A stretch of 64,000 nt of DNA from Bdellovibrionales bacterium. Its GTDB lineage: Bacteria > Bdellovibrionota > Bdellovibrionia > Bdellovibrionales > UBA1609. The stretch lies in assembly GCA_965261545.1 (NCBI GenBank), contig CBDHDF010000010.1, positions 128,001 to 192,000 of the forward strand. Reading direction: 5' to 3'. The notes under the pieces are model-generated. The model saw only the letters and a program-made list of their open reading frames with translations. It had not been told where the DNA came from and ran no database searches. Of this stretch, positions 9,128 through 35,843 are shown in pieces (position 1 is the stretch's first letter; each line of letters begins with the position of its first letter). The position numbers and the translations under genes were made by a program.

Positions 9128-10372
9128 ATGAGCACGGAAGCTCAAACACTTAAAACGATCAAAAAATGTTTCAAGAAAGTTATTCCTGAAAAGGACTCTC
9201 GGGCAACCATTCCACCTCTTGAGTTTATTGTGGCTCTTGTCTTGTCATTCCAGGGAGACTCTAAGACATATTCAATAGAGGGAATTAGGAGGTTTATGAT
9301 AAGTCATTTAGGATTAAGAATTGAAAGACACAGCTTCTGGGAAAGACTCTCTAGAAAAAGATTAAAAGAGCTTCTGAGTAAACTGGTTGAAATGCTCATG
9401 ATAAAGCTATCTCATGGAGCTTTTCATGGGAGCAAAGCCATATTATTACAACTGGGAGTCTCAGACGTTCTTCTTGTTGACTCAAGCACAATAAGCCTTT
9501 GGGATGGAGCATCTGAGAATTTTCCAGGGACAAGAACAAACGCAGGAATTAAATGGCACGCTTGTTTCAGTTTATTCAGTGGTATAATGACTTGGTTCGA
9601 ATTAACTCCGTCTTCCACTAACGATAGGAAGTGCTTTCCTGATATAAAGGAACTCGTTGGAAAATTAGTCATCTTTGATTTGGGATATTGGGACTATGGC
9701 TTATTGTCATCTATTCATGAAGCTAAAGGATTTTTCTTGTCTAGAGTAAAGTCAAATGCCTCTATTCTTATTGATGCTGTTGTTGAAGGTTTGCCAGATT
9801 ACTATGTTGGAAAAGAGTTCTCTGATATTAAACTCAAGAAAAAAAACGATGTTGTTGAATTTATAGGCAGTGTCTTGTCCAATGGTAAATGGGTAAGTTT
9901 GAGAATTGTAGGCTTCTGGAATTCCTCCGAAAAACGCTATCATTGGTATTGCACGAATTTAGATGTGGCAGCGGAGTCCATATATCCAATTTATCGTTTA
10001 CGTTGGCAATGTGAACTTATTTTCAAATCTTGTAAGAATTCTTTGAATGCAAATCAGATCACCTCAAACGATCAAAATATCATAGAGAGTCTTCTTCTTG
10101 CTTCATTAGCGGCTCACCTCACATCAAGTGTTGTTTTGAGGATAGGAAGAACTAAACTCAATAAGGAACAAAATGACTCCACATCGTTTCAAAGAGTTGC
10201 TAAGGTTACCGTCTTATTAGCCTCTGATTTTATCAAATATCTCCTAAGCTCATCTCAAAAGTATTTAAATATTTTGATAGAGAAGATCAAGATATTCTCC
10301 CATGAAATTTATGACACAAACTACCGACGGCGAAAAACATCAATGAATATGGCTAAAAAGGTCTTGCTATGA
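9128..10372 (+). CDS. IS4-family transposase
   Basis: LVDSS, FDLGY and YRLRWQCELIFK (YREK) motifs. Confidence 0.93.
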   Translation: MSTEAQTLKTIKKCFKKVIPEKDSRATIPPLEFIVALVLSFQGDSKTYSIEGIRRFMISHLGLRIERHSFWERLSRKRLKELLSKLVEMLMIKLSHGAFHGSKAILLQLGVSDVLLVDSSTISLWDGASENFPGTRTNAGIKWHACFSLFSGIMTWFELTPSSTNDRKCFPDIKELVGKLVIFDLGYWDYGLLSSIHEAKGFFLSRVKSNASILIDAVVEGLPDYYVGKEFSDIKLKKKNDVVEFIGSVLSNGKWVSLRIVGFWNSSEKRYHWYCTNLDVAAESIYPIYRLRWQCELIFKSCKNSLNANQITSNDQNIIESLLLASLAAHLTSSVVLRIGRTKLNKEQNDSTSFQRVAKVTVLLASDFIKYLLSSSQKYLNILIEKIKIFSHEIYDTNYRRRKTSMNMAKKVLL

Positions 10373-11946: not shown

Positions 11947-12106
11947 TGTCCCAAAAATGGCCTTGTTTAAATAGGAGGTCGCCTTAAATGGACCATGGGT
12001 GGTCCATTGAAGATATTTAAATATTTCAGAAAAAAAGTGTGTCATTCCATAATGATAAATACTTTTCCTTTGCACATACTTCATATTTTGACCCAAATTT
12101 TGGTCA
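11947..12106. promoter_or_regulatory. Cluster of palindromic 18-mers (candidate enhancer/UAS sites)
   Basis: TGTCCC-aaaaat-GGCCT (11947), TGGACC-atgggt-GGTCCA (11989-12006) and TGACCC-aaattt-TGGTCA (12089-12106). Confidence 0.45.
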
Positions 12107-12166
12107 ATGGAATGACAGTGAGATGGTGTGAGTGCCTTGAAACCCACTTAGGTTTGAATACAGATT

Positions 12167-12182
12167 TGGCATGATTTATGCT
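12167..12182 (+). promoter_or_regulatory. Sigma54 (-24/-12) promoter
   Basis: TGGCATGATTTATGCT fits GG-N10-GC and is close to TGGCACG-N4-TTGCW. It lies upstream of an NtrC-type gene. Confidence 0.65.
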
Positions 12183-12193
12183 TATAAAAATCT

Positions 12194-12331
12194 ATGAAAG
12201 CATTTTTTAATTTACATCATTTGAACTTACATCATAAAGGCTCATATATTTTTAGGTCTATATTAGAAACCACATCTTTTGATTTACTCCCCATCATAGC
12301 CTCTAAATATTACAGGAAAGAAAAGAACTAA
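12194..12331 (+). CDS. Possible leaderless 45-aa peptide
   Basis: MKAFFNLHHLNLHHKGSYIFRSILETTSFDLLPIIASKYYRKEKN*. The ATG falls at about +2 of the predicted sigma54 start. Confidence 0.3.
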   Translation: MKAFFNLHHLNLHHKGSYIFRSILETTSFDLLPIIASKYYRKEKN

Positions 12332-13508
12332 GAAGAATTAAGAAGAATTAAGAAGAATTAAGAATAAGGTGTCACGCCCACCTATATATGAAAGTCTATA
12401 AAAGACATGTTCATAACATGAAAGACATGCTCATATAGTTCATATAGATATATAGGTCGTATAAAGGGCTGTAGGCAATAGATTCGATTCTACAATAGTG
12501 GGAGGTATCAATCAATGAACTATAAAATTCTTATCGCCGATGACCAAGAATCTGTTCTTGATAATTTTCGAGAAATGTTCAAGAACCATTTGGACATTGA
12601 GCCCACCCTGACCCAACAATCCTTGGATGCCTTAAAGCTTATCCAAGAAAACCCCTATGATTATGCCGTTGTTGTTCTGGACTATCATTTTGAAGGTCAA
12701 AAACTCAATGGAGCGCAGGTGGCTCAAGAGATTCTTAAGATCAACCCCAAGCTGATTGTTCTTATTTGCACAGGGGACATGGGTCGAGAAGCTCCTATTT
12801 CTTGTCTCAAGGCCGGAGTGAGTGACTTCATTCAAAAAGACGAACCCCTTGATAAGATTATTGCTAGAATTAGATCCAATTTTAGGAAGTTTGATGAACT
12901 CTCACGAGTGGTGACAAGCAAATCCACCCAATATCAGTCCCACCAAAAAGAATTTGAAGAGGCATCTCTGATTTCAAAATTGGGTATGGTCGGTTGCTCT
13001 GCATCTATGGCTTCAGTGGCACAAAAGGTCTTGACCTTGAGTAAAAATGGAGGGGATAAATCGACAATACTTATTCGTTGTTAGGCGCCAATTAAAATTG
13101 GCCATTTTTAGAAGCCGTCGCCAATGAAAAACGGCCAGTTGATGATGTACTGATTTAGTTATTCTTCGTTCAGAGTTTAGTCAAGTGTCTTTATTTTGCT
13201 CATCATTTAACTCGGACTATGCCACAAGATTCTGAGGAATGATTTTCTGCCCACCACTTTTGGCATGACCCCAAATGCATCCTTCAGCCCTATGGCAGAG
13301 GTAAATGGAGTATTTTTCAGGATTCCTTGGCGCAGCTAATGTCTAAAGCTCCGCGAGAGTGACGAGCAAATAGTACGGTAAAAGCCAGTTATCCATAAAT
13401 TTATCCATGGCGACACTGCGGCTGTGACCCCGATGTCTAGCAACGCAGTGCTGCTGTGGATAAATTTTGTGGATAACTGGCGAGTTCCTTCCCCAAAAGT
13501 GGGGATCT

Positions 13509-14291
13509 CTAATGAACTTCTTTGGTTGAACTTTCCTCTTTGCTCTGTTTAGACTTGGCTTTTGCCGATTCGGTTCTCCAACTTTCTTTTCCTTCAATGT
13601 TGAGGGTTTCACAGTTGTGAATAATTCGATCAACAGCAGCAGCGGTGGTAATAGGGTTAAGAAACACCTTATCCCATTCAGAGTAAGTTAAGTTTGTAGT
13701 GATCATGAGACTTTTCCTTTCATATCGCTGAGATATGAATTGAAAGAAAAGATCAGCACCCTCTGTGCAGGAAGCTGTATAGCCAAGTTCATCACAAGCA
13801 ATAAGATCAAAACGGTCTAATTTCTTAAAAAGAGCATTCAATGAGAGTTCTTTCTTGCTTTCACGCATTGTTTCAATAAGTTCATGAGTGGTGACCCATA
13901 AACATCGATAGCCTTGTTCACAGAGTGAACGAACTAGGGACATGGCCAAATGACTTTTCCCCATTCCAAAGCTTCCGTAAAACACAACATTACAGGCTTT
14001 TCTGACCCACTCTCCCTCTGCCATCCAATTAATTTGCTGAGCTGTCACTCCCGTTCTTTTCTGGAAGTTATAAGTTTGGAGTGATTTAAGTTGAGGAAGC
14101 TTGGCCCCCTTAAGCAATCTTTTCACTCTCTGGGAATGCTTGTCAGCAAGCTCATTTTGAACGAGTATACCTAAATACTGTTCATACGTCTTTTTTGTTT
14201 TTTCGGCAACTCTAGCCGTTGCAACATATTCATCCGCCATCGCTGGAAGTCGGAGTTTTTTAAGAGAACCTATAAGTTCTTCGTGATTCAT
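13509..14291 (-). CDS. istB: IstB ATP-binding helper protein
   Basis: GSFGMGKS, ACDELGY, ITTNL...W and AVDRIIH. Confidence 0.93.
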   Translation of the reverse strand: MNHEELIGSLKKLRLPAMADEYVATARVAEKTKKTYEQYLGILVQNELADKHSQRVKRLLKGAKLPQLKSLQTYNFQKRTGVTAQQINWMAEGEWVRKACNVVFYGSFGMGKSHLAMSLVRSLCEQGYRCLWVTTHELIETMRESKKELSLNALFKKLDRFDLIACDELGYTASCTEGADLFFQFISQRYERKSLMITTNLTYSEWDKVFLNPITTAAAVDRIIHNCETLNIEGKESWRTESAKAKSKQSKEESSTKEVH

Positions 14292-15757
14292 TAAGAACCT
14301 CCTATGTTTGGAACAAGACTGTCATATTGAGACAATCTAGGTTGAAGTGGTTTTTGTTGGTCATTCAAATTAATTTTGGTGGGATTGCCTAAGAGCAAAT
14401 CTTTTATGGATTTAAAGTCGAAAATCTCACGACTTTCTAATTGAAGCTCCATGGCTGTAGATAAGTCCTGCCAACTCACATGCTGAATCAAGTTGATAAC
14501 TCTTAAATATTCATGCTCGGCACGGCTTGAATCTTGTTGCTTGAGGTATTGATAAAAATTTTCAAACACATTTGTTGGAAAAAGAATGGATCGGTGAGCC
14601 CATCTTACCATGGCTTGCGGCTTACGAACTAAAGAGGGAAGGATATGTTCAAGAAGAAGACTATGCTCCCCATCAGGTTTTCTTTGATGGCGAGCGACAA
14701 TTTCTTGCTTCCCTCCTGCACGATAGATCGTGACATGATAGGGACCCTGTACGGTTTTACAGGGAGATTGGATCACCTCATCAGGTATGGAATATGTGGT
14801 TTTACCTATTCTCAAAGTCCCATAACCATTACTTTGACAAATATTCACCTTACAGAGAATATCTTCATCTCGTGGAGGCAAAGGCTTAAGAACTTTGGCC
14901 TCCTCCTCAAAGCGAGATTTGGTGGAGTCACTCTGATGCTGATCCATATAAGACTCTAAAAACTGATTCAAATGATCCCAGTCTTTAAAAACAATTCCTT
15001 TGTTTCTAACAATATTTTTTATCCGAGAACTGAAGGTTCGAATATCACGCTCCACATCTCCCTTGTCAGAGCCCTTCCCTGCGCGGCAGGGAAGAACCTT
15101 AAATCCATAGTATTGGATGGCTCGATCAAAAGATTGGGTGTAAATTCGCTGATTTCCTTTAAGAACTTTCTTCACACAGGGAGATAAATTATCAATACGG
15201 ATGTTCGCACTCATCCCACCTATCTTTTCAAAAAAAGCATGCACCCCATCGATGAAACACTCATAGACAAGAAAGGGGTAGGCACGAACCCAACAGGTGC
15301 CACTACAAGGCAATGTTCCAAAATGGAGATGAACGATCTGAACACCATCGGCAAATGGTAAAGCAACCTTCTCCTTAAAATCAAACTGAGCCTGTTCTCC
15401 AGGATCATATCTTTGGCTGAAAAAACGCTCCTTGGGGCGAGAACCAAGAATCTCACAAACTCTTCTCTGAACCGTTCTCTCACTCCCACGATAACCCTCC
15501 TCAACTAATAGCTCATATATTTCACGGGCGGTGTTACTTGGGTTCAACTTCAAAAAGTACTTCACCCGATCCATATATCCATTAAGGGGATCTGGGCGAG
15601 TTCTTTTGGACCTCGCCTTGTACTTCGGTGGGGTGTTGGACTCACAGTACTTGCGCACCGTCTTACGATTGATCCCTAATTCACGAGATATTTCTGTCTT
15701 ATTTTTACCACTGTGACTCAGGTCACGAATGCGGCCGAAAGTGTATTGACTAATCAT
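14291..15757 (-). CDS. istA: IstA transposase
   Basis: HTH (ISRELGINRKTVRKY), PGEQAQFDF, IDN and KGDVE. Start placed at MISQY after GAGGAGG. Confidence 0.92.
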   Translation of the reverse strand: MISQYTFGRIRDLSHSGKNKTEISRELGINRKTVRKYCESNTPPKYKARSKRTRPDPLNGYMDRVKYFLKLNPSNTAREIYELLVEEGYRGSERTVQRRVCEILGSRPKERFFSQRYDPGEQAQFDFKEKVALPFADGVQIVHLHFGTLPCSGTCWVRAYPFLVYECFIDGVHAFFEKIGGMSANIRIDNLSPCVKKVLKGNQRIYTQSFDRAIQYYGFKVLPCRAGKGSDKGDVERDIRTFSSRIKNIVRNKGIVFKDWDHLNQFLESYMDQHQSDSTKSRFEEEAKVLKPLPPRDEDILCKVNICQSNGYGTLRIGKTTYSIPDEVIQSPCKTVQGPYHVTIYRAGGKQEIVARHQRKPDGEHSLLLEHILPSLVRKPQAMVRWAHRSILFPTNVFENFYQYLKQQDSSRAEHEYLRVINLIQHVSWQDLSTAMELQLESREIFDFKSIKDLLLGNPTKINLNDQQKPLQPRLSQYDSLVPNIGGS

Positions 15758-15882
15758 AAGATCCTCCTCATTGCTAACCTTTTGAGTTGCAAAAGGGAGG
15801 GACTCTGTGAGCTTAGTATCTATATCAGAAGAAGAGACTTCATTGTCTAGTATTTGAACACTCCCTGAAGATTGGTCACTTT

Positions 15883-16257
15883 TCATTGGCGACAACCTCC
15901 ATATTGAAAGTGGGACATTTTAATTGGCGACGGCTTTAAGGGAAGCCTGTCTTCAAAAAGAAATTCCATGAAAATTGAGGCAAATGTTGGAATCTTGTGG
16001 AATTTAAATACTTTAGAAAATGGGCACAGCCTAAACAGGCTTTTCTTGACTATATATTTAACCTCATTGAAATCCAGAAACAGTCTACAAATGAGAAATA
16101 TGGAACCTGAATAGGCTGTCATGGAAGGACTCTCCAACACGGAGCCCCTTTCCAGGTCGACAAGAACCCAAAAGGAGTTCTTATCAGCTCGGAGCCTTTT
16201 TATGAGTAATATCAATTGATTATATGCGTCTCGGTTGACAATGCCAAAAATCACCAT
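15883..16257 (-). CDS. Hypothetical passenger ORF inside the IS21 left end
   Basis: 124-aa ORF with a GAGGAGG RBS, lying between terminal repeat copies. Confidence 0.5.
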   Translation of the reverse strand: MVIFGIVNRDAYNQLILLIKRLRADKNSFWVLVDLERGSVLESPSMTAYSGSIFLICRLFLDFNEVKYIVKKSLFRLCPFSKVFKFHKIPTFASIFMEFLFEDRLPLKPSPIKMSHFQYGGCRQ

Positions 16258-17192
16258 AGGTCCTCCTCTGAAAAGTGGCCACTTTTCATTGGCGACGGTG
16301 GGGCATTTTAATTGTCAGCTAACATTCGTGGTGAGTCGGGAACAGGAAAAGAGCTTGTTGCAAGAGCCATTCATGAAAACTCATCTCGAAAGGCAAAGCT
16401 TCGCATTGATATCAATTGTGCTTCTATTCCAGAGGGTCTTTTAGAATCAGAGTTTTTTGGCCATGAAAAGGGAGCCTTTACGGGAGCGGATAAAAAGCGA
16501 CTTGGTAAGTTTCAGGTGGCCACAGGTGGTACAATTTTTCTTGATGAAATTGGTGAAATGCCCAAAGAACTTCAGGCTAAACTTCTTCGAGTCTTACAAG
16601 AAAAAACCATTGAACCCATTGGCTCCAACTCTCCCATACCTGTGGACGTTCGAGTGATTGCCGCAACACATGTGAACCTTGAGGAAAAGGTTGAATCTGG
16701 GGAATTTAGGGAAGACCTCTTTTATCGACTGAACCAAATACCCCTCTTTATTCCCTCCCTAAGAGAGCGTCCCGAAGACGTTGCCCCCTTGGTCACCCAC
16801 TTTATGGACAAGCACTCTGGGAGAGAAAAGAAAAAACTCATGTATAAGACCTTGCAATACTTAAAATCTTACCAGTGGAATGGCAATATTCGTGAACTCG
16901 AAAACACCATCAAGCAATTGGTTGTTTTAACCCCCAGTGATGAGATTCGTCCAGAGCATCTTGATGCTAAGATATTTGAAGCCAACAGCAGGGCGGCCAC
17001 AATGTCGTATCCAGAGTTTAAAAATATTGTGAATAAAAAAGTCGAAGAGGAAGAAAAAGAATTTCTTGTCTCAAGAATAAGAGCTTATCCCTCCTTAAGA
17101 GCTGCGGCAAAGGCTCTGTCTATACCAAAAACCTCACTCCAGAGAAAACTCTCTGAATGGGGATATTCTTCAAAGGGCGAGGGGGTGTTGGT

Positions 17193-18275
17193 ATGAGTTT
17201 CTTAAAAACAATGGAAGACTATCTACTCAAAAAGGTTATAAAGCATATTGGAGGCCAAAAAAGCATGGCCATTCAACTGGATATTACAAATGCTTGCAAC
17301 CTTAAATGTTCCCACTGTTACCATTCCCATCATAAAAATACGGGAGCTTTAAACCTTGAAGGCTGGCTTGAGATTCTTGACCAGTACGACAAGATGCTTC
17401 AAACTCTCAAGCTACAGCCCTATATTGTGATTTGCGGCGGGGAGCCCACATTAAGTCCCTATCTTTTTTCTATTCTAAAAAGAGCCAATGAGCTTTGGGA
17501 AAGTCCCACCATTACAATTCTTACCAATGGTACAAAGCTTACAGACAAACTACTGTCTTCCCTCAGTGAGTACAATATGCGGTTTCAGGTCTCTCTAGAC
17601 GGTCCTGATGCTAAGAGGCATGATGCTCTTCGTGGTAAAGGGAATTTCCAAAAGGCACTGGAGGGAGCCAAACGGGCCAAGCAGTACGGCATTGAGACAA
17701 ATATTCTAAGTATTTTATCAAAGAAGACCTCCCATTGGATTCCAGAGTTCTTTCAAATGGTCAAAGAAAACGACCTTAACTCTATGGGCTTTACACGATT
17801 TATTCCACAGGGTTTTGGCGCAGAGCTTGTCGAAACTGGGGGAGATGATTCCTTGTATGGTTTTGAACTCAGGGATGCCATGAAGTCCATCATTTATTTT
17901 TCAAAGAAATCTGGGGTGCGAACTTCAACAGACCACCCCTTATATCACCTTATTGACCCCAAGCTTGGTCATAATGGCCGCTTTGGATTCCAAGGACTTG
18001 TAGTGGACTACAAAGGTAACTTGAAGGTTTCTAGCAGAGCCAATTACATACTTGGAAATGTACTCGGCGAAGGTCTGCAAAATTTGTTCTTACACCATCC
18101 TTTAATGAAGGATTTGAGAAACTCCCAAAAGATCAATGGATGTGGTGATTGTATGTATTATGCACGATGTGGTGGAGATAGAAATATAAGCTATGCCACA
18201 ACGGGAAGTTTTTTAGAAAAAGACAAAGGATGTTGGATTCATCCAAGAACTATCAAGAAAGGAGTTGTCGCATGA
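17193..18275 (+). CDS. Radical SAM/SPASM-domain protein (candidate peptide maturase)
   Basis: [20 protein letters not shown] and C-terminal CGDC-x5-CGGD...KGC. ATGA overlap with the upstream stop. Confidence 0.92.
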
Positions 18276-18643
18276 AAAAAATAACAAGGAAAATAAAAAG
18301 AAGAAGCTTATTATTTCTTCTGTCTTTAGTGCCCATACAGTCTCTTGCTTTTGCTGTGGATTTTTCTTCAAAATTAGGAAAGAACAGAGAATCTCTAGGC
18401 AATCATAATTATGAAGAAGAGATGGTAAATCGTTTGTTGGAAGGAAGTATGCCTGAAAAATATTATGATCTTATGGATAAGCATCATGTGAAGCATCCCG
18501 AAGATTTATATCTTAATGAATTTCAGTCACAGAGAATCCTCTTAAAAAGAGAATTTATCAATGATCTCTATGCTTCCAATGAAACAGAAGATGGAATTGA
18601 TAAAGAAACAAGTGGAGCTATGAGTGACTTTCTGTGGCCATAA
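18272..18643 (+). CDS. Secreted 123-aa protein, candidate precursor peptide
   Basis: AAGGAG RBS and ATGA overlap; basic n-region, hydrophobic h-region and AFA cleavage site; acidic region, then C-terminal TSGAMSDFLWP. Confidence 0.75.
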   Translation: MKKITRKIKRRSLLFLLSLVPIQSLAFAVDFSSKLGKNRESLGNHNYEEEMVNRLLEGSMPEKYYDLMDKHHVKHPEDLYLNEFQSQRILLKREFINDLYASNETEDGIDKETSGAMSDFLWP

Positions 18644-18676
18644 TTCATGGACGAAACAGTTTGAGAGTCTTGTAAA

Positions 18677-20197
18677 ATGAATAAATTTATAATTTTTTTT
18701 ATTATATCAATGAGTATCTTCAGCTACCATTGGATATGGAAAGGAGAGGGTAACGAGATGATCTTAAAAGTAGGATATCCAGATGGGTGGAATGATCTCA
18801 CGCCCACACTTCAACATACAGGACATGCGGACTCTATTTTGCATAACGCTTTTGAGCCATTGGTCATCCTCGGGAAAAATGAAATTATTCAACCTATGGC
18901 CGCAAAATCATGGTCTATCGATCCTCAAAAAAGAGTATTTACATTTGAAATTGATACCAAAAGAAAGTTTTCTAATGGAACTCCACTTTCTGCACAACAT
19001 TTCAAAGATTCATGGGAGTATAGCCTCAAAGTGACACCTAAGTCTTCTAATAACAGCTTGCTTGATGTCCTTTACAAGATGGATGGTTTTGAAAATCATG
19101 AGAAAACAGGAAATATCTCTGGAATTGAGGTTCTTAACGAGAGTACTTTAAGAGTTACTTTTAAGAAATCTTTTCGTATGGCCCTTAGTCATTTGTCTGG
19201 ATCAAGAATGTCTTCTTTCCTCCGAGAGGGCGAAAATTTTCTAGGAACCGGTCCTTATGTTATCAATGAAATAAGTGAGAAGGAAATCATGTTGATAAAA
19301 AATGAATACTTTTTGGACTCTGTTCCTTTTGACAAAGTAAGCATTAAGATTGTCCCTCCTGATGTGGCTCAAGAATCTCTAGATCGTGGCGATATTGATT
19401 TTTATGCCTTCGCCAAGGGCTCTCTTGATCTTTGCCGTGAGGAGTTTTTAGAGTGCAGTGCGGGATCTGAAAATCGCCATGCTGTGATTATCGTCAATGG
19501 TCAAGAGGGACGTATTTTTAGCAATCCACAGCATCGGAAAGCCCTTCAATACCTTTTCTTAGATGGCTTTACATTGGAAGATATGCCCAAGGAAAGTCGT
19601 TCTGGAATCCAGTTAGACCCTCAAATATTCTTACCATTCCAATCGGGGCGCATAACAGAGTCAAAAGCCAAGGAGATTATTCAGCAAGGCCAAACATATG
19701 TTGAGAACTTTATCAAGGCCACCCAAGAACAACCACTTTATTTTGCCCTCCATAAGAGAGGGAGATGGCTCCAAGAATACCTCGGAAAGAAGGGAGTTCA
19801 ATTTTCTAAGAAATCAGAAAGTGACCATGAGGAACAATTTAGAAAAATGTACCATAAAACCTACGAACCAGATATCATCCCTAGGGCCTTAAGCGTTTTT
19901 AATGGTGACCCCGATGGAATATATCATGCTCTTGGTGAAAAAGGGGCTATCAGTTCTCCCATGATTCATCGTAAAACTATTTCATCACTCCTTGAAGAGG
20001 GCCGCAAAATACTTGATTTTGATAAATTGGCTCCACACTACGAAAAGGTGGCTGAAGCAGCCTTGCAAGAAGTTCCTTTTATCCATATAGGATTCTTGCA
20101 CGACATTATGATTTTAAAAAAAGACCGAGTGAAGCTTAATGGAAAATACGTCAATCGTGAAGATGGACGCTTTACAAACTACCAGCCAGTGGAATAA
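18677..20197 (+). CDS. Family-5 (OppA/DppA-like) solute-binding protein, orphan
   Basis: FEPLV...PMAAKSW, FSNGTPLSAQHFKDSW and GTGPY motifs; N-terminal TM anchor. No permease or ATPase genes nearby. Confidence 0.88.
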   Translation: MNKFIIFFIISMSIFSYHWIWKGEGNEMILKVGYPDGWNDLTPTLQHTGHADSILHNAFEPLVILGKNEIIQPMAAKSWSIDPQKRVFTFEIDTKRKFSNGTPLSAQHFKDSWEYSLKVTPKSSNNSLLDVLYKMDGFENHEKTGNISGIEVLNESTLRVTFKKSFRMALSHLSGSRMSSFLREGENFLGTGPYVINEISEKEIMLIKNEYFLDSVPFDKVSIKIVPPDVAQESLDRGDIDFYAFAKGSLDLCREEFLECSAGSENRHAVIIVNGQEGRIFSNPQHRKALQYLFLDGFTLEDMPKESRSGIQLDPQIFLPFQSGRITESKAKEIIQQGQTYVENFIKATQEQPLYFALHKRGRWLQEYLGKKGVQFSKKSESDHEEQFRKMYHKTYEPDIIPRALSVFNGDPDGIYHALGEKGAISSPMIHRKTISSLLEEGRKILDFDKLAPHYEKVAEAALQEVPFIHIGFLHDIMILKKDRVKLNGKYVNREDGRFTNYQPVE

Positions 20198-20199
20198 TC

Positions 20200-21894
20200 A
20201 TGAAGAAAATGATCTTAAAGAAAATAACCTTGAACAAGTGGCTTCTTAGAAACACAAAAATGCCATTGCTCATCCTAGGGGTGATGGTCGCCCTTGCTCA
20301 AGTATGTTTTGTGGCTTATACCCACAATAGATCAAAAGAAACACAAACAAAATCCATCAAAAAGCTTGTCGCCACGGTCATCCAAATTGGAATACATCAA
20401 AAAAACCGCCCTCTCTTAGAATCATCCTTTCAACTGGCCATGGAAGAACTTGGCGTAAGGTCCATGATTTTTTGCGAGGGCACAAGAAAAATATTCCACC
20501 AACCCTTTGGGTTTGGAAATTGCCCCCATAATCTCAAGGAAGGATTTTTTGAATCTGTGATTGAAGTCAATCCCTCTGGATTTAAAGATCATCATTTCTA
20601 TTTTTATGTGGATCGTTTTCACATTGGCCCCTCTCTCATCGCACTGAATGTCATTATCTTAGTATTTTTGTCTATTGTTTTTATTATCATCTATAGGATA
20701 CAAAAACATCTTTCAAAAGATATATTTTTGCCTCTAGAAAGTCACTTGTCTGGAGGAGATGAGATTTATATTGAAGAGCTTGATGCCATTAGAAATAAAT
20801 TTGAAGAATATCGAAAATCCAAAGAGAAGCAAGCTGTGGCGGGGGCCATTATTGAGTACAATATGAGCATTAATCACAACATCAAGTCAATGAAACAGAC
20901 TCTTGATGTGATTATGTCAGGTGAGTTTTCTTCGGAAAGGCAAAAGCAGAGATTTAACCAAGTTTCCAATGATTTTAAGAGGCTTATGGCCAAAATTGCC
21001 GACCAGATACCAGATAGAAATAAAGTAAGCCTTATCACCTCAGACAAAACATTCTTTGAGTACCTTGAAAAGGAGAATGAGAAGACAACAAAGGTATGTG
21101 CCGTTGATGCCTTTGAAATTGCTTGCGAACATAAAAAAATCGAAAAGAAATCTTCTAAAAATGATCTTCGTATTGAAATATCTTACGATGATGAGGTAAA
21201 AAAACTGTATATTGAAGCCGTCGATCCTGAGTTGAGGGGTATTTTTTCAAACTTGATGAACAACTCTATTGAATCTGGAGCCACTCATATTGAGATCAAT
21301 CTACGAAAAGAAGAGACCGACCTTGTAGCAACAATTTTTGATAACGGGAAAGGAATCCCTCAAGACATCAAGGAAAATATATTTCAGCGAGGTTTTAGTT
21401 GGGAAAAAGAAGGTGGAACAGGCTATGGACTCTACCACGCTCAAAGATTTATAAGGTCATGGCATGGAGAGTTTCATCTTCTAGAGAGCAAGAAGGGACG
21501 AACAGAGTTTGAAATCAAACTTCCCATATGGAGCCCCTCCTCCATGGATATTGATTCAGCAGGCCATATCGTGATTTTAGATGACGAAGATTCCGTTCAT
21601 GACCAATGGTTGGAAAAGATGAACTCGATCAATCCAGAAGCCAAGGTTCTTTCTTTTAAAAAGCCCCATGAGTTTCAAGATTGGTTTAACGAAAATGAAA
21701 TCTTCTCCCATTATATCTTCTTTTTTGACAGTGACCTGGGGGAGCATGAAGAAAATGGAGAGCATTTAATAAATGAAATGGGTCTTAACCACATCTCCTA
21801 CCTTGTCACCAACAACTATAATAATCCAAATCTGACAAAATGGTGTGATGAAAGGGCCATTCAAGTCATTCCCAAGGGCTACTTGCTGGGTTAA
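20200..21894 (+). CDS. Membrane sensor histidine kinase with a C-terminal receiver-like domain
   Basis: Two TM segments, H-box-like NHNIKS, N box NLMNNS, DNGKGI, GTGYGL and ILDDE...FDSDLG. Confidence 0.9.
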   Translation: MKKMILKKITLNKWLLRNTKMPLLILGVMVALAQVCFVAYTHNRSKETQTKSIKKLVATVIQIGIHQKNRPLLESSFQLAMEELGVRSMIFCEGTRKIFHQPFGFGNCPHNLKEGFFESVIEVNPSGFKDHHFYFYVDRFHIGPSLIALNVIILVFLSIVFIIIYRIQKHLSKDIFLPLESHLSGGDEIYIEELDAIRNKFEEYRKSKEKQAVAGAIIEYNMSINHNIKSMKQTLDVIMSGEFSSERQKQRFNQVSNDFKRLMAKIADQIPDRNKVSLITSDKTFFEYLEKENEKTTKVCAVDAFEIACEHKKIEKKSSKNDLRIEISYDDEVKKLYIEAVDPELRGIFSNLMNNSIESGATHIEINLRKEETDLVATIFDNGKGIPQDIKENIFQRGFSWEKEGGTGYGLYHAQRFIRSWHGEFHLLESKKGRTEFEIKLPIWSPSSMDIDSAGHIVILDDEDSVHDQWLEKMNSINPEAKVLSFKKPHEFQDWFNENEIFSHYIFFFDSDLGEHEENGEHLINEMGLNHISYLVTNNYNNPNLTKWCDERAIQVIPKGYLLG

Positions 21895-22096: not shown

Positions 22097-25069
22097 GTGA
22101 TGAAAATAAAGAACCTAAATCCGAGAAACAAGGGATATTTTGCAGTATGCCAGATCATGTCCCCATGGACTGTATTTTCCTGCTTGTTATTTCTTTTGTT
22201 TTCTACGGCATTGGTTGTACAGGCACAAGGTAGAGTGGCCAGTGACAAGGGCATGAATAAAGACGTGGACATGGGAGCGAACAGGGGAATTGGCAAGGGT
22301 GGCAACAAGAATTCTCTGGCTTTGAAAGCCGAAGCATTAGAGCGACAAAGCAAGCCACCTTCAGACAACAAGTCGCCCTTAGACACTGCAAAAAAGTCCG
22401 TGGTTTTACCTAAGCCTTCCCTTCCCCCCAACAAGGTTCTTCAAAATAAAAAAAATAAAGATATGGAGAAGATTAAAATCACTGGCTCACGCATTCAGCG
22501 CATAAACATGGAGGGTTCTTCACCCACCATTGTTTTAAGTCGAGAGGATATGGAGAAAACAGGCTATAATTCCATTGCTGATATTCTGCGTGATATGACG
22601 GTGAGTTCCTTTGGGTCGCTACGTGAGTCTCCTGGCAGCACTTCATCGGGTGTAGCTCTCATCAATCTAAGAGGTCTTGGGGCTGATAGAACTCTTGTTT
22701 TGATGGATGGGAAGAGGGTGCAAAGAGACCCTCTTAAAAATGCCGTGGACCTAAACCTCATTTCTTTGGCTGCGGTGGAGAGAATCGAAATTTTAAAAGA
22801 CAGTGCCTCAGCCATTTATGGGTCTGAAGCCCTTGGAGGTGTTGTTAATATTATCACCCGGAAAAACTTTAGTGGCCATGAAGCCTCAGTGAAACAACTT
22901 ATCAGTGAAGGCTCTGGCGGAAATCAGACCGAGGTGGGCCTAACCTCTGGAGCTTCTTCTGGGCGATGGAGTGCCACGGGAATCTTGCACCATAGAAGCA
23001 ATGAAGCCATTTATGATATTGACCGCAAGTACTCTCGGTTAAGATTGAGTCCCTTAAGCTCTCCTGCAACATTTCGAGTTTTAAAATCAGACAAAAAAAC
23101 CTCCTACACAGAAGCGGACGGAAAAACACTTGCGTTTCGCTCTCGCCCACAGGCGTCCCCAAGTTGCCCCACGGATAGAGTTGCCAGAGGATATGGGGGA
23201 ACTGTTTGCCAAGCCAATTATGCAAGCCATCTCACAAACCGCCCTAGCTTGGAGCAAACCAGTGCTATGCTCAACACAAACTTTCAAGTTAGAGATGACG
23301 TGAACACCTTCTTTCGCCTCCATGGTGCCTTCCGAAATGTTCAATGGGCCTATTCCCCCACTCCCATTGGTTCTTTTTCAGGACATGGCATTTCGGGGAG
23401 ACAAGCCAAAATATACGCCATGGAAGACCCCCAGCTAAAGAAAATTTTTGAAGGTTTGAGAGATGATGATTTTGTAGAGGTGAACAGCCGCCTCATGGAG
23501 CTAGGAGACCGTCAATCGGATATTACCACCCACCAATATGGTACATTGGCAGGGGTGACATTGGAAAAGGGAGATACTTGGGAGATCGAAATTTCTGCTG
23601 GCTACAACCAGAGTTTTACCAAGAATGTGGGAGCCAATGGATATGCTCGCTCTCATGAAGTTCAACAACGACTTGATACAACAGGCTTCAATCCATTTGC
23701 CTCTCCAGGAACAAGGGGAGACCTTTCAGAGTTAAATTATCAGACTTGGACCACGTCCATGACAAGCTTGATTTTGGCTGAAGTTTCGGCCACGGGAGAT
23801 ATTTTTCAAATGCCATCGGGTCCCGTGGGGTTGGCCATTGGAACTCAAGCCCACAGGGAAGCTTTTCGTATAGACTCCGATGAAGCCACTAAAAATGATG
23901 AAATCATAGGAGCTGCTGGAGGAAAACTTGACGGGTCTCGTAATGTTGTGTCTGGCTATATGGAGCTATCACTTCCCTTGCTGCCAAGTGTGGAGTGGAG
24001 CCTCTCAAGCCGCTATGATGCTTATTCTGATTTTGGTCAAGCCTTTAGTCCTAAGACAAATATTCGTTGGCAGGTATCTCCCAAAGTCATGGTTCGCTCA
24101 TCCATAGGAAGAGGTTTTAAAGCACCCAACATGGATGATCTCTATAAAGAAGGTTCCCATGGCTTTCAAACTTTTATAGATCATGTGCTTTGCCAAAAAA
24201 GTGGTGGCAGTAGTGGAGGTGGTGGAAGCAATAGAAGTGGGGGAGGTGGCAGCAGTAGCGGAAGTGCTTGCCGCCCTCACCAGTGGAAGGTCATAAGCCA
24301 TGGCAATACCAACCTTAAGGAGGAAAGGTCTTTATCTGCAAGCCTTGGGGCCTTTGTGGAGCTTACCCATGGCATCGAGTTTGGCATTGATGGTTGGTAC
24401 TTGAAGTTAGAAAACGAGGTGGGGCTTCAGTTTGACGATATGACAATGGCTGAACATCGTTTTGGGTCCCAATATCTTCAAGGTTTTGGCATTCATGTGG
24501 AGCGTGACCCATCCACAGGCCAAATCAAAAAAGTCATAGCTCCCCACCAAAATCTTTCAAAAAGAGAGTTGAGTGGGGTCGATCTTGTTACAGAAGTTTT
24601 TAAAAGCACGAAGTGGGGTGATATTGCTCTTGCAGTCCAACACTCCCATTTGCTTTACAACAAAACTGTTGGCTTTTCTGGCTTAGAGAAACAAGATACA
24701 TTGGGTCACTATGGCTTGCCTCCATGGAGAAATGTTGTTTCCCTGACATATTCTCCAAGCCACTCAACGGGAATTCGTATGAGAGGGTCAAGCGACCATC
24801 AAACGGGAACATTGGTAGCAAGAACCGTGGCCCCTCATCAAAAGCGTAGCTCCAAGGCTGGCAATCACAAGCAATATACAGAGCTAGACCTTCAATACAC
24901 ATATAACGGCTTATGGGGAGGCTCTGGCAGCATCTCCATGGGAATTCGCAACATATTGGCAACCACGCCCCCCGTGGATGACAGCAACCCAAGCCTCCCC
25001 CAAATGCACTCGTCTTTGTACGACGGAAATGGCCGCATGGGATGGCTGCAATATAAGTATTTGTTTTAG
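22097..25069 (+). CDS. TonB-dependent receptor
   Basis: EKIKITGSRI TonB box, NLRGLG..RTLVL.DG, ERIEILKD.ASAIYGSEALGGVVNII and a terminal F. Confidence 0.93.
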   Translation: MMKIKNLNPRNKGYFAVCQIMSPWTVFSCLLFLLFSTALVVQAQGRVASDKGMNKDVDMGANRGIGKGGNKNSLALKAEALERQSKPPSDNKSPLDTAKKSVVLPKPSLPPNKVLQNKKNKDMEKIKITGSRIQRINMEGSSPTIVLSREDMEKTGYNSIADILRDMTVSSFGSLRESPGSTSSGVALINLRGLGADRTLVLMDGKRVQRDPLKNAVDLNLISLAAVERIEILKDSASAIYGSEALGGVVNIITRKNFSGHEASVKQLISEGSGGNQTEVGLTSGASSGRWSATGILHHRSNEAIYDIDRKYSRLRLSPLSSPATFRVLKSDKKTSYTEADGKTLAFRSRPQASPSCPTDRVARGYGGTVCQANYASHLTNRPSLEQTSAMLNTNFQVRDDVNTFFRLHGAFRNVQWAYSPTPIGSFSGHGISGRQAKIYAMEDPQLKKIFEGLRDDDFVEVNSRLMELGDRQSDITTHQYGTLAGVTLEKGDTWEIEISAGYNQSFTKNVGANGYARSHEVQQRLDTTGFNPFASPGTRGDLSELNYQTWTTSMTSLILAEVSATGDIFQMPSGPVGLAIGTQAHREAFRIDSDEATKNDEIIGAAGGKLDGSRNVVSGYMELSLPLLPSVEWSLSSRYDAYSDFGQAFSPKTNIRWQVSPKVMVRSSIGRGFKAPNMDDLYKEGSHGFQTFIDHVLCQKSGGSSGGGGSNRSGGGGSSSGSACRPHQWKVISHGNTNLKEERSLSASLGAFVELTHGIEFGIDGWYLKLENEVGLQFDDMTMAEHRFGSQYLQGFGIHVERDPSTGQIKKVIAPHQNLSKRELSGVDLVTEVFKSTKWGDIALAVQHSHLLYNKTVGFSGLEKQDTLGHYGLPPWRNVVSLTYSPSHSTGIRMRGSSDHQTGTLVARTVAPHQKRSSKAGNHKQYTELDLQYTYNGLWGGSGSISMGIRNILATTPPVDDSNPSLPQMHSSLYDGNGRMGWLQYKYLF

Positions 25070-25299: not shown

Positions 25300-27807
25300 A
25301 TGGCCAAAAAAAGAATACTTAATTTTCAATTAAAATTATTTTACAGCTATTCTCATGAAGATAAACAGCATAAAAATGATATGGAGAAAGCACTTGCTAT
25401 TCTTAAAAGAGATAAGCTACTCAATGAGTGGTCTGACAAAGAAATTTTACCGGGTCAATTAATTTCTAAGGAAATAAAAAAGAATATGAGAGAAGCAGAT
25501 ATTATTGTATTTCTCTTTAGTCAAAATTTTATCGCTTCTCAAGAATGTATGAACGAGTGGGAAGAGGCAAAAAAAATTTCTCTAGATAAAAAAAAATTTT
25601 TCCGAGTTCCAGTTATTCTATGTGATTGTCCATGGAAAGATATATTAAAAGATGATAACATCAAATCATTACCGAATGATGGGAATCCAGTTGCCAATTT
25701 TTCCAACAAAGAAACTGCATGGAATCAGATTTATGAAGGCATCAAGAATATCATTAACGAACTAAGAAGTGATTTTACTCCTAATGAAAATTTTTTAAAA
25801 GAAATAGAGAAAACTGATTTTTTATCTGAGAGTCAAATTAAATTAAAAAATATTTTTATATTCTTGCCATTGTTGAATTATAGACAAGATCAAGAATATA
25901 GTCAATTAAGAGAAGAAAGAACTACAAGCCAAGGCCGTTTAAGAGAAGAAAGAATTACAAGCCAAGACCAGCTGTTTAATAAAAAGTATACCATCATCCA
26001 TGGCGAAGAGATGAGTGGGAAAACTGCTCTTAGTAGGTATTTATTTCTCTGTTTAGTTGAACAGTTAGTTCCTGTTCTGCATATAAATATGGATGATATA
26101 CCCAAGCAAGTTTTGCAAGTGGATTTTCTAAAAAAAGTATATCAAGATCAATTTAATGGAGACTATGACCTATGGGTGAAAAAAGATAAGAAAGTTCTCA
26201 TATTAGATGATTTACATTGCAAATCAAATATGATTGATTTCGTTATTCAATCAAAAGATATTTTTGATAAAATAATTATAATGGTATCATCAGATATTTT
26301 TAATTCGTTTTTTAAAGATGAATCTCGACTGGCTGATTTCCATCAATTAGAAATCCAACCAATGGGACATCAACAACAAGAAAATTTAATTAAAAAAAGA
26401 TTAAAGTTATCCGATATGAAAGCAGAAGATGGACTTATAGATCAAATAGAAGAACGTGTAAATTCCATAATTATATTTAATAAATTTGTTCCAAGATATC
26501 CATTCTTTGTATTATCTATCCTCCAAACCTATGAAGCGTTTATGCCTAATAACATGTCTATAACTTCTTATGGACATTGCTATAACGCTTTAATTATTTC
26601 GTTCCTTATTAAGTCTGGGGTCCAAGAAAGCGATAAGGATATTAATACGTGTTTTAATTTTCTTGAAAACTTAGCATTTAAAACATACAAAAATAATAAC
26701 AAAATACATTTTGATAATTTTATTCGTGAATATGATAACCAATTTATTATTGCAGATTCAATAATTAATAGGTTAAAAAGCAATGAATATGGAGTTCTTA
26801 ATGAAGAAGGTTCTTTCAAGAAAAAATATATTTATTATTTTTTTCTTGGAAGATTTCTTTCTAAAAATAAAGAATACGAAAAAATAATTGAAAATATGTG
26901 CGAAAAAAGTTATTTAACATCAAACTATTTGACTCTTCTTTTTATTATTCATCATACAGATGATGATAAAATAATAGATGATATTCTTCTTAGAACTATG
27001 TGTACAATAGATTCTGTCGAGCCAGCAACTCTGGATTGCAAAGAAACAAAGAGATTTGACAAAATTCTTAAAACATGTCAAAAAAACATACTTTCCAAAG
27101 GTAGTGTTTCAAGTGAAAGAAGAAGAGAGAGAGAGAATCGAGACATAAGTGACCGATCAGAAATTAAGAACGAAAAAATAGAAGATGACGATCCTTGTAA
27201 TTATATTTATAGGATTTTTAAAAACAATGAAATTATAGGGCAAGTTTTAAGAAACAAATATGGGAGTATGAAAAGAAAGCAAATTGAAGATATAATTGAG
27301 ATAATTGGAGATAGTGGTTTGCGTCTCATTAATATAATTCTCAAAGATAAAGAAGAGATAGACGAAGTTGCATTATGCATTAAAAAGAGGGGGACTGATA
27401 TTAGTGTTAACAAGATAAAGAAAGAACTCCAATTTTTTTCTTTCATATGGGCAATGTTAAATATTGAAAAAATTGTTAGATCTATAAATATTCCTGAGAT
27501 TAAAGAGGCTATAGATCATGTTGTATCCAAAAAATCAACTTCAGCATATGATCTTATTGGATACTTCAACCAACTAGATAGGTCAGAGTCATTTGGGGAG
27601 AGAGAAAAGAAGGCTTTAAGTAGTTTACTCAAAAAACATGATAATAATAATTTTATTAAAAAAGTAATTTCTCTAAGAACACAACACTATATGAATACAC
27701 ATAGAACCAAAGAGCCTATACAACAAGGAGTTTGTTCTTTACTGAATATCAAGTATACCCAAAGGGCCCTCCATCAAATTGAAGAAAAGGTTAGGGAGTG
27801 TCGTTAG
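25300..27807 (+). CDS. TIR domain + STAND-like P-loop NTPase (putative antiphage protein)
   Basis: TIR: FYSYSHED...ADIIVFLFS..FIASQECMNEW. Walker A GEEMSGKT, Walker B VLILDD. Very AT-rich. Confidence 0.8.
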   Translation: MAKKRILNFQLKLFYSYSHEDKQHKNDMEKALAILKRDKLLNEWSDKEILPGQLISKEIKKNMREADIIVFLFSQNFIASQECMNEWEEAKKISLDKKKFFRVPVILCDCPWKDILKDDNIKSLPNDGNPVANFSNKETAWNQIYEGIKNIINELRSDFTPNENFLKEIEKTDFLSESQIKLKNIFIFLPLLNYRQDQEYSQLREERTTSQGRLREERITSQDQLFNKKYTIIHGEEMSGKTALSRYLFLCLVEQLVPVLHINMDDIPKQVLQVDFLKKVYQDQFNGDYDLWVKKDKKVLILDDLHCKSNMIDFVIQSKDIFDKIIIMVSSDIFNSFFKDESRLADFHQLEIQPMGHQQQENLIKKRLKLSDMKAEDGLIDQIEERVNSIIIFNKFVPRYPFFVLSILQTYEAFMPNNMSITSYGHCYNALIISFLIKSGVQESDKDINTCFNFLENLAFKTYKNNNKIHFDNFIREYDNQFIIADSIINRLKSNEYGVLNEEGSFKKKYIYYFFLGRFLSKNKEYEKIIENMCEKSYLTSNYLTLLFIIHHTDDDKIIDDILLRTMCTIDSVEPATLDCKETKRFDKILKTCQKNILSKGSVSSERRRERENRDISDRSEIKNEKIEDDDPCNYIYRIFKNNEIIGQVLRNKYGSMKRKQIEDIIEIIGDSGLRLINIILKDKEEIDEVALCIKKRGTDISVNKIKKELQFFSFIWAMLNIEKIVRSINIPEIKEAIDHVVSKKSTSAYDLIGYFNQLDRSESFGEREKKALSSLLKKHDNNNFIKKVISLRTQHYMNTHRTKEPIQQGVCSLLNIKYTQRALHQIEEKVRECR

Positions 27808-30664: not shown

Positions 30665-30707
30665 TCCACCCCCCCAACCCCTCTTCTAGAGGAAAGGAGC
30701 AATCACA

Positions 30708-31478
30708 ATGCCAATGTCACCTACAGAAATACAAGAGACTCTCAAAAGCCTTAAGCTTATAGGCATGTTTGAAACATTTGAGGCTCGAAGTTACCAACAC
30801 ACACAGAACCAACAAAACTTCCAAGAGACCTTCTCATTGCTCTTACAGGATGAAAAGGATTTCAAGAAAAGCAAAAAATGTGAGAGACTCCTCAAAGCAT
30901 CCAAACTCACGGAAGAGTCCACCCTCACTGGCTTTGACTGGAATTTTAACCCAAAAATACCGAAACCAATGATCTTGGAATTAATGAACTTGAAGTTCAT
31001 CAAGCAGGGGGAGGGAGCCTTGCTTATTGGCTCCCCTGGAACTGGAAAAAGCCACATTGCAAAAGCTATAGCCACCAAGGTCTGTTCCATATCAAATTAC
31101 AAGGTTTTGTATCAAGAAGCTCACAAGCTCTTTGAAAATCTCTTTGAGGCCAGGCAGCTGGGGCGCAGAAAGAGGTTCTACACCCAACTCATCCATGTGG
31201 ACCTATTGATCATTGATGATCTTTTTCTTAGAAAGCGCATCCCACCAGAGGCTTGTGATGACTTCCAGGAAATCATTCTGGATCGATACTCAGCGAGAAA
31301 AAGCACTCTTATTACCTCCAATCGTATTATTGAAGATTGGGGAAAGTGTTTGGGCGATAATACCGTGGCCTCTGCCATCCTGGATCGCCTTCTCCACTGT
31401 AGCCAACTATTAAAATTTGAGGGAAAAAGCTACCGATTGAAGGAAGCTTCAAACCGACTTGTCAAGATAAAAAATTAA
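30708..31478 (+). CDS. istB: IstB ATP-binding helper protein
   Basis: GSPGTGKS, LIIDD, ITSNR and ILDRL. Confidence 0.93.
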   Translation: MPMSPTEIQETLKSLKLIGMFETFEARSYQHTQNQQNFQETFSLLLQDEKDFKKSKKCERLLKASKLTEESTLTGFDWNFNPKIPKPMILELMNLKFIKQGEGALLIGSPGTGKSHIAKAIATKVCSISNYKVLYQEAHKLFENLFEARQLGRRKRFYTQLIHVDLLIIDDLFLRKRIPPEACDDFQEIILDRYSARKSTLITSNRIIEDWGKCLGDNTVASAILDRLLHCSQLLKFEGKSYRLKEASNRLVKIKN

Positions 31479-33344: not shown

Positions 33345-33534
33345 TATAAACCTCCTTAAATGCTGAGGTTTCAATAAGGACGCAAAGCTTATCTTTTCTG
33401 AAGTAAAATTTCCCTCGAAACTGCCTTGCTCTTAGAAGTCCTCTATGAGCGAGAATCCTAATCGCATTGGCACTTTTCCGAAGGTATTAAGCAGCTTCTT
33501 CTGTTGTTAACCAAACTAAATTGTCAAAGAGCAT
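33331..33534 (-). pseudogene. Excisionase-like HTH gene with an in-frame TAA, copy 1
   Basis: MLFDNLVWLTTEEAA*YLRKSANAIRILAHRGLLRARQFRGKFYFRK...; stop codon at 33487-33489. Confidence 0.75.
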
Positions 33535-35630: not shown

Positions 35631-35843
35631 TCTTCCTCTCAATGACTTGTAGTCGTAAAAAGATAATATAGAGAGATTCTTGAGATGCAAGCTCTATTTT
35701 ATCATCAGAGGGGCACCAATTTGTGACCTTTGCAGGCCCCAGTTAGTTATAAGCTAAATTTTACTTCAATATAGCAGCAATTTGCTATTCTTTTTTAAGG
35801 GTCTCTGAGGGGGCACTTCTCTGTTTTATCGCTAGGAGTCGAT

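Follow-up and report, generated by a model that had tools for sequence, protein, structure and literature searches.

A conserved radical SAM, binding-protein and kinase cassette of Bdellovibrionota that resembles a modified-peptide quorum-sensing circuit

The window analyzed here is a stretch of 64,000 nucleotides from a Bdellovibrionales bacterium (contig CBDHDF010000010.1, positions 128,001 to 192,000), which carries at its positions 11947 to 21894 a gene block for an NtrC-type sigma54 activator, a radical SAM (rSAM) enzyme, a small secreted protein of 123 amino acids (aa), a family-5 solute-binding protein (SBP) and a hybrid histidine kinase. We found that this block is a real, conserved unit, and that it represents an apparently undescribed system which resembles peptide quorum sensing and falls outside each known family that we tested. 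An initial annotation, made from the sequence alone, had proposed a modified-peptide signaling circuit, and we consider it probable that the cassette is indeed a mobile, self-contained autoinduction circuit with allele-specific channels. The rSAM enzyme, in the cytoplasm, would modify the precursor, with a conserved serine of the variable precursor tail, or a position adjoining it, as the most likely site. The precursor would exit by the general Sec route on an N-terminal signal that is conserved enough to double as the leader recognized by the enzyme, after which the SBP would likely bind the modified tail, whether released from its carrier or still attached to it. The SBP would very probably dock on the periplasmic domain of the kinase and switch it. 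The kinase would then phosphorylate the sigma54 activator, which would bind three palindromic boxes of conserved motif upstream of its own operon and so close a feedback loop. Variation affects precursor, SBP and kinase jointly, as one block, and this would give kin-specific channels.

The five genes stand in the order and belong to the families that had been claimed (Response_reg plus Sigma54_activat, Radical_SAM, a 123-aa open reading frame (ORF) without family match, SBP_bac_5 and HATPase_c; Table 1), except that the regulator is split by an IS21 element of 3.2 kb, which the initial annotation left out of its description, although its list of checks did mention a "repaired regulator". The two ATGA overlaps are present at 17193-17196 and 18272-18275. 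The gap from precursor to SBP is 33 nt and that from SBP to kinase 2 nt. The kinase has two transmembrane (TM) segments and, at its C-terminus, a receiver-like motif. As had been stated, the gene block of the window is free of permease, ABC ATPase and exporter genes.

Conservation was assessed by scanning rSAM relatives with an 11-sequence alignment, of which the best 80 of 295 in genomes and the best 80 of 445 in metagenomes were taken, so that the counts are lower bounds. The family comprised 70 of 78 loci from genomes and 29 of 80 from metagenomes, the rest being sister enzymes of ~24-36% identity. After de-duplication there were 91 family loci (including a copy on contig C11 of the same genome, described below) and 54 sister loci, and only loci with enough flank entered each count. 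The rSAM family forms roughly 50 clusters at 50% identity (53 matches at E<=2e-40, some of them fragments) and is, by record label, mostly from Bdellovibrionota, with 14 from Elusimicrobia and a few under other labels of metagenome-assembled genomes. A precursor ORF with a signal peptide lies beside the rSAM gene in 77/80 family loci (12 placed by eye), a family-5 SBP is linked in 62/65 and a kinase in 55/58. At the sister loci the corresponding numbers were 0/39 for the SBP, 0/32 for the kinase and 0/16 for the regulator, and a hidden Markov model of the precursor leader had no match there at >=12 bits. The linkage persists where gene order is reshuffled (L060, L068, L104), and the conserved synteny that the proposal had called for is thus present. 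Distribution is patchy: the cassette occurred in 4/41 genomes in a first search, and an SBP match below 1e-40 in 20 of 251 class genomes (26 at 1e-25). In the isolate genome of Oligoflexus tunisiensis Shr3 (L027), rSAM, precursor, SBP, kinase and regulator stand in a row, and RefSeq gives the proteins only generic names ("radical SAM protein", "hypothetical protein", "ABC transporter substrate-binding protein"). In three loci (L027, L031, L032) the regulator gene follows that of the kinase.

The window precursor consists of a conserved signal/leader (~1-28, cleavage site by eye), a helical domain (~43-106) and a flexible tail that includes Ser118 (codon 18623-18625). All precursors have an N-terminal basic-hydrophobic segment, a conserved Pro and an Ala-rich end, and 76/79 passed a simple charge-plus-hydrophobicity signal rule. 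Their middle parts are unlike: a helical domain in the window group (model pLDDT >90), a domain of another kind, aligning weakly to sister PqqD (probability 9%, E 0.004), in another subgroup, and none in forms of 48-66 aa; the two long groups align in the leader only. Ser118 is invariant in 17/17 aligned relatives while the surrounding tail is variable. In a set from which 12 truncated or broken and 4 Oligoflexus-type precursors had been dropped, and which was reduced from 63 to 47 at <60% identity, the Ser of a tail motif (S/G)(G/A)x(P/L/D)S is found in 43 precursors, and the motif scored 250 against 206+/-5 (max 215) in 20 shuffles. Aligning the homologs, a check proposed with the initial annotation, accordingly revealed a shared leader, a variable tail and a near-invariant Ser. 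A short precursor that has a conserved leader and a variable core and lies beside a maturase, as in the 77 loci above, is the layout of gene clusters for peptides (RiPPs) that are ribosomally synthesized and then modified post-translationally. We regard it as very likely that the 123-aa-type ORF is the rSAM substrate, and as reasonably probable that the conserved tail Ser is the modification site. Database searches with the precursors were negative: Pfam and NCBIfam gave nothing above cut-off, Pfam PqqD did not match any of 19 precursors, the window subgroup gave no PqqD-like alignment, a fold search of the precursor model against 48,161 chains returned none at Z>=5 and is uninformative, and an ESM Atlas search, with low recognition, produced no usable match. 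The Oligoflexus-type precursors (L027, L031, L032, L040) have a doubled hydrophobic leader, at once followed by the Gly/Ser motif, with the helical part after it.

The enzyme clearly belongs to the radical SAM superfamily (PF04055, 87.1 vs 29.5 bits; the three Cys of CxxxCxxC in 74/74). The SPASM part of the original assignment held in reduced form: Pfam SPASM was unmatched, and four of the canonical seven Cys are retained, C317, C320 and C326 in 74/74 and C347 in 72/74 (CxxCx5C...C). The other three positions are replaced (G, S/T, D/S/N), whereas 34-36/36 sister enzymes have Cys there. Going by anSME ligation, we take the retained set to be AuxII, so that presumably the second auxiliary cluster was kept and the first lost. 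The best fold matches of the rSAM model (pLDDT 93) are SkfB, SuiB and anSME, all of them peptide-modifying SPASM/twitch enzymes. anSME acts on Ser or Cys of a peptide; the cassette enzyme differs from it in the three lost SPASM Cys and in that no sulfatase recurs nearby, and the anSME model scored 52-66 bits against a cut-off of 349 in two of the family members listed. No named NCBIfam rSAM peptide maturase came over cut-off (best TIGR04053 127/395 and TIGR04340 120/400), and three more family members were likewise below the cut-offs. If confirmed, the enzyme would stand for a radical SAM family that is new, has a stripped-down SPASM region and is predicted to target Ser.

Alternatively, the enzyme could make a small-molecule or cofactor signal, or modify the SBP or the kinase, with the small secreted protein serving as an accessory subunit. 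This possibility, which we consider very improbable, would agree with the weak NCBIfam similarity to AhbD/NirJ models (98-102 bits), with the window precursor being without an N-terminal RiPP recognition element and with its folded domain. Yet the AhbC, AhbD and NirJ scores (79-102 bits) are nowhere near the cut-offs of 500-650, no heme or cofactor genes recur among the neighbors of family loci, and other precursor subgroups either lack the folded domain or have a non-homologous one, while retaining leader and Ser tail. Because the sister loci encode PqqD (over cut-off in 2 of 3 tested) and a CxxCxxC peptide, the nearest kin look like peptide maturases and not like heme enzymes; the clustering with cofactor enzymes that had been named as a possible refutation was therefore not seen. 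In the sister system (L086-L091, L093, L094), the rSAM has all seven Cys, PqqD is present and the peptide ends in a CxxCxxCHGCR-type motif; in the two sister enzymes tested no NCBIfam model came over cut-off. An assignment of this group as SynChlorMet was dropped since no model reached its cut-off.

A second version of the cassette bears on the question of the substrate. Four cassettes in the same genome, two of them near-identical, have the order regulator, small secreted ORF, family-5 SBP, YcaO and kinase. A search of 351 genomes of the phylum matched six others, all six with small ORF, SBP, YcaO and kinase in this order, three with a regulator in front and one with an SBP under the Pfam cut-off. 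Because two unrelated peptide-modifying enzymes, rSAM and YcaO, fill the same slot, this arrangement argues that the small ORF serves as a substrate and that SBP and kinase are concerned with its product.

For the receptor side of the proposed circuit, His226 of the kinase is kept in 52/52 aligned homologs and the receiver Asp in all 29 rows having that column. We co-folded SBP residues 27-506 with kinase residues 40-146, using 48-row alignments, three controls and three runs. The score was 0.79, against 0.00 for the best control, a mark that was reached by 116/157 solved complexes and 2/215 mismatched pairs, although these counts are only roughly valid since our own alignments were used. The runs share at least 68% of contacts with a partner pLDDT of at least 71. 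In the model, kinase residues Q67-N69-R70-E74 face SBP residues 319-325 and 409-411, and the kinase interface is more conserved than the rest of the domain (0.45 vs 0.35, p=0.007, in a partly circular test). No solved sequence relative of the kinase sensor domain was found at E<=10. The co-folding of SBP and kinase that the initial annotation had recommended thus supports docking of the SBP on the kinase sensor domain.

Family 5 includes the Vibrio protein CBP, and the nearest named relatives of the SBP are Opp/Nik/Cnt transport proteins. The product might accordingly be an effector, such as a metallophore or antimicrobial, that is captured by the SBP for Opp/Dpp uptake or immunity, while the two-component pair answers another cue. 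Two Opp/Dpp-type operons elsewhere in the host genome and a TonB-dependent receptor directly after the window copy (22097-25069) would be in line with this. However, Opp-type permeases (OppB/C homologs) are near one family locus (L025), where they lie beside other binding proteins, so that the linked permeases and ATPases of an Opp/Dpp importer are missing. A TonB receptor is near one family locus besides the window, none of the 47 tails has a Cys within its last 14 residues, and the modeled contact favors the kinase as partner. We therefore consider an effector role improbable, and the earlier caveat that the SBP may serve an Opp transporter encoded elsewhere keeps the two operons on its side, with linkage and co-folding against it. 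The TonB receptor, of which the last 37 codons alone remain after the C11 copy, could import a signal; it was rejected as a core part, as were ABC-2-type transporters (up to 7/99 loci, in a loose ATPase cluster).

The predicted autoinduction was examined at the promoter level. The host genome encodes sigma54 (rpoN), and the sigma54 promoter claimed in the initial annotation was recovered upstream of the window regulator, with no comparable site in 100 shuffles of the region. Across the family, sigma54-type sites with <=2 mismatches occur in 22/72 upstream regions, where 2.8 would be expected. Within 18 regions that were selected because they contain a site of this type, the motif TG(A/T/G)CC-N8-GG(T/A/C)CA was present at 37 sites vs 0.74 expected, a pattern that was read from those same regions. 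Three or four boxes, near -67, -145 to -172 and -210 to -256, are found in 11 of the 14 box-bearing regions. A regulon scan of the host genome gave 604 sigma54-like sites, with a strong box (score >17) at the three cassette promoters only; two other sites with high totals were rejected because they lie inside transfer genes on the wrong strand. The conserved boxes and promoter support autoregulation in the lineage, with binding and activation as predictions. Of the palindromic enhancer-like (UAS) sites noted earlier in the window, the one at 12089-12106 fits at <=1 mismatch, and those at 11947 and 11983-12012 do not. Two further elements were seen in the window: a 10-bp tandem repeat in the long leader (12323-12362), with two units more than in the C2 and C11 copies, and a perfect enhancer-like box within the rSAM gene (17954-17971), which is kept in both other copies and may be a coding coincidence.

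These two copies are further rSAM cassettes of the same genome, one intact (C11:301572-307717) and one with an interrupted rSAM gene (C2:538533-546410). Both have an intact regulator, and their precursor-SBP-kinase blocks are 99.8% identical. Compared with them, the DNA identity of the window cassette, in 150-nt bins, is 87-100% over the stretch that begins with the promoter and ends with the rSAM gene, and ~57-78% from the precursor start through the kinase. In line with this, dS between window and C11 (dN/dS was computed for 15 pairs) is 0.09 for the regulator, 0.32 for rSAM, 0.96 for the precursor, 1.5 for the SBP and saturated for the kinase. The tree path between both is 0.09 for rSAM and 0.96 for the SBP, the latter being equal to the path to other genomes, and the trees of rSAM, SBP and kinase (13 rows; a quick version for the kinase) agree in the starred groups. 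We infer that the 5' half was recombined or converted and thereby joined to an old, divergent specificity block, and that precursor, SBP and kinase differ between copies in the manner of specificity alleles, much as agr groups join a conserved part to a variable specificity block. Elsewhere in the family, L047 and L049 share 94% identity in rSAM, 95% in the N-terminal part of the kinase and 82% in the SBP, with differing tails. Two SBP genes per cassette, or two head-to-head cassettes (L060), were seen in L026, L031, L068, L060 and the YcaO loci L189 and L191, and these are possible intermediates in specificity change. A fourth regulator copy (L016, C2:221392-222126) is internally deleted and runs into a tRNA-like sequence (by eye).

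Several observations weigh against an autoinducing peptide circuit. A linked regulator is present in only 22/40 long family loci (25/40 if the distance rule is relaxed), and the family uses regulators of two or more lineages. The enhancer motif is missing in 4/18 regions (L027, L032, L040, L072), and the enhancer and tail motif statistics ignore kinship, which inflates the tail motif score. One of the three co-fold runs scored 0.57, and the SBP interface columns are about as conserved as average (0.52 vs 0.51, p=0.46). Among recurring neighbors of family loci, no protease, exporter or importer/permease is conserved, and because a conserved protease, outer-membrane exporter and importer are all lacking, release of a diffusible signal is unexplained.

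The last point fits a self-sensing role, in which the modified product would not leave the periplasm of the producing cell (or the prey compartment) and would signal, via SBP, kinase and regulator, the Fe-S/oxygen status, a leaking envelope or confinement. The helical body of window-type precursors, which is well folded in the model, would be too large for porins if uncut, and bufferins remain periplasmic (PMC11626156). Against this, divergent alleles occur next to each other within one genome, their precursor, SBP and kinase differing as a block, an oxygen-independent YcaO can stand in for the rSAM enzyme, and many precursors are just 48-66 aa long. Taken together, we consider self-sensing unlikely, and continue with the autoinduction circuit as the preferred reading.

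The window copy itself is damaged. An IS21 element with TG..CA ends, flanked by a 5-bp TTCGT target duplication (13074-13078 and 16325-16329), was inserted just ahead of the Walker A motif of the regulator. Its identity follows from istA/istB (PF01695, 194 bits vs a cut-off of 24), and the genome holds 31 full-length near-identical matches. One of the three boxes is left at the window promoter, and because this box is 79 nt upstream (66-71 nt in most homologs) and the leader to the start codon is longer (348 nt), decay of this promoter is suggested. Since the regulator is split and the enhancer partly decayed, the window copy is unable to autoinduce alone, so that the autoinduction originally proposed for this operon is supported for the lineage and not for this copy. 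It is a divergent allele that could work only via the intact C2/C11 regulators, to which its own is 98-99% identical. In contigs of one sequencing run, the regulator without the IS reached a depth of 11 and the window allele one of 6, in agreement with the C2/C11 copies, and no contig bridging the IS junction was among the matches listed; these data comprise four runs of one sample, which is possibly the source of the assembly, and are not independent, and no RNA run was among the holders listed.

Modified-peptide signaling through kinases is textbook knowledge for Gram-positive bacteria. Like agr and ComQXPA, the cassette brings together a putative precursor, its modifying enzyme, a membrane kinase and a regulator in a single locus, autoinduced there and predicted to be so here, and joins a conserved part to a variable specificity block. 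In contrast to them, it has no AgrB/AgrD or ComQ/ComX match, its regulator is of NtrC type and not LytTR or ComA-type, and it combines a diderm host, a Sec-type signal, a separate family-5 binding protein, a sigma54 activator and an rSAM or YcaO maturase. In streptococcal RaS-RiPPs an rSAM-SPASM enzyme lies beside its precursor under shp/rgg quorum-sensing control (PMC9389541); in that case a separate Shp/Rgg signal has the RiPP as its output, and a peptidase/transporter is dedicated to the RiPP, whereas the cassette lacks a transporter and has its precursor beside a putative receptor. The Vibrio systems LuxP-LuxQ and CBP-ChiS are precedents for a periplasmic binding protein acting on a hybrid kinase (10.1101/2020.01.10.902320), a contact that for the cassette is a model and not a measurement, and LuxO is, by its NCBIfam name, a sigma54 activator like the cassette regulator. 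Their ligands are AI-2 and chitin oligosaccharides and no maturase is involved, whereas a co-encoded ribosomal peptide is the putative ligand here. Bufferins have RiPP precursors of ~80-120 aa with a Sec signal that are modified and lack a dedicated exporter, and such Sec-exported RiPPs are a precedent for the proposed export (PMC11626156). They differ in their MNIO/DUF2063 enzymes, in Cys-based copper chelation and in having no receptor kinase; MNIO/DUF2063 genes do not recur at family loci, and the tails are free of Cys as described above. Rap-Phr systems occur as several divergent, horizontally moved alleles per genome (PMC5199041), with an unmodified peptide that is imported and sensed in the cytoplasm, and show no homology with the cassette. 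Full-text searches of the literature outside subscription journals returned no paper whose title or abstract start describes the cassette, and the statement that this architecture is not known from characterized Gram-negative systems stands within that scope.

A link of peptide signaling to mobile elements is familiar from the role of Rap-Phr in ICEBs1. A VirB4 or coupling-protein gene lies within 10 kb of 11/39 long loci, and the window cassette is ~12 kb from a transfer-gene cluster with an integrase-like gene (pilin and VirB families checked on homologs). The window cassette seems to be carried as cargo by a conjugative element riddled with ISs. Near-identical clusters of this kind are at C10:112906-128511 (which ends at window position 511) and C11:250904-266512. 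The YcaO cassettes, at C11:438710-444946 (L175), C11:224656-230524 (L176), C11:476837-482728 (L177) and in a C2 copy (L178), all lie close to VirB4-like genes, and the three on C11 each have a sigma54-type site in divergent orientation. In 7/11 regions, picked after the pattern had been seen, a sigma54 site points away from the regulator to the head genes of the element (0.28 expected), the positives being YcaO cassettes and L043/L045. Window-type loci have scattered boxes and no sigma54 site directly before transfer genes, which speaks against such control in them. Conjugation control is thus a lead and not a result, and the transfer operon of the carrying element is a tentative further output of the circuit. 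At a similarly tentative level, somewhat lower if anything, predatory Bdellovibrionota and Elusimicrobia may have their own RiPP quorum-sensing family, largely on integrative conjugative elements. A fixed SBP-kinase-sigma54 chassis would there be combined with allelic peptides and interchangeable maturases (a one-auxiliary-cluster rSAM with new Ser chemistry, or a stand-alone YcaO), by which the element would count carriers and time transfer.

If confirmed, the circuit would be an undescribed kind of peptide signaling in Gram-negative bacteria, a defined allele-specific communication channel for predatory bacteria and a receptor chassis with swappable chemistry. The intact C11 allele and the O. 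tunisiensis Shr3 locus make it directly testable.

Table 1. Features of the window cassette (window positions).
Feature	Position	Strand	Remarks
Distal enhancer-like box, degenerate	11947..11964		Resembles the intact box at the equivalent place in L019; more than 1 mismatch, uncounted
Inverted repeat, off-consensus	11983..12012		Roughly where the middle enhancer box sits
Enhancer (UAS) box TGACC-N8-GGTCA	12089..12106		Perfect match to family motif
Sigma54 (-24/-12) promoter-like site	12167..12182	+	2 mismatches to consensus
NtrC-type regulator, 5' part: receiver domain and linker	12515..13078	+	PF00072
IS21-family element splitting the regulator	13079..16324	-	istA 14291-15895, istB 13509-14291
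Regulator, 3' part: AAA+ domain (GAFTGA motif) followed by HTH	16325..17196	+	PF00158; GAFTGA read in intact copy
Radical SAM enzyme, unnamed family, reduced SPASM region (4 Cys)	17193..18275	+	PF04055
Putative precursor, 123 aa	18272..18643	+	Signal/leader, helical domain, flexible tail
Family-5 SBP, putative receptor subunit	18677..20197	+	PF00496; co-fold
Hybrid histidine kinase	20200..21894	+	2 TM, ~100-aa periplasmic domain, His226, HATPase_c, receiver Asp510

Further genes were noted around the cassettes. In the window, a PKD/DUF285 repeat surface protein (4109-6163) recurs upstream of the other two cassette copies, and a DDE transposase (9128-10372), a second IS21-like pair (28568-31478) and a tyrosine integrase (32181-33374) are also present. 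A TIR-domain protein (25300-27807) and a dCMP-deaminase-domain protein (34077-35690) both look like defense cargo. Elsewhere in the genome, at C7:452006-453362 and near a kinase, is a gene pair which, by eye, resembles an MNIO (DUF692) enzyme with its partner. Three other sigma54 regulator-kinase cassettes (C10:77227-84243, C10:226445-232439, C11:982993-990010) have a lipoprotein-like gene of ~1010 aa in between and no family-5 SBP, and each of them adjoins a coupling-protein gene.

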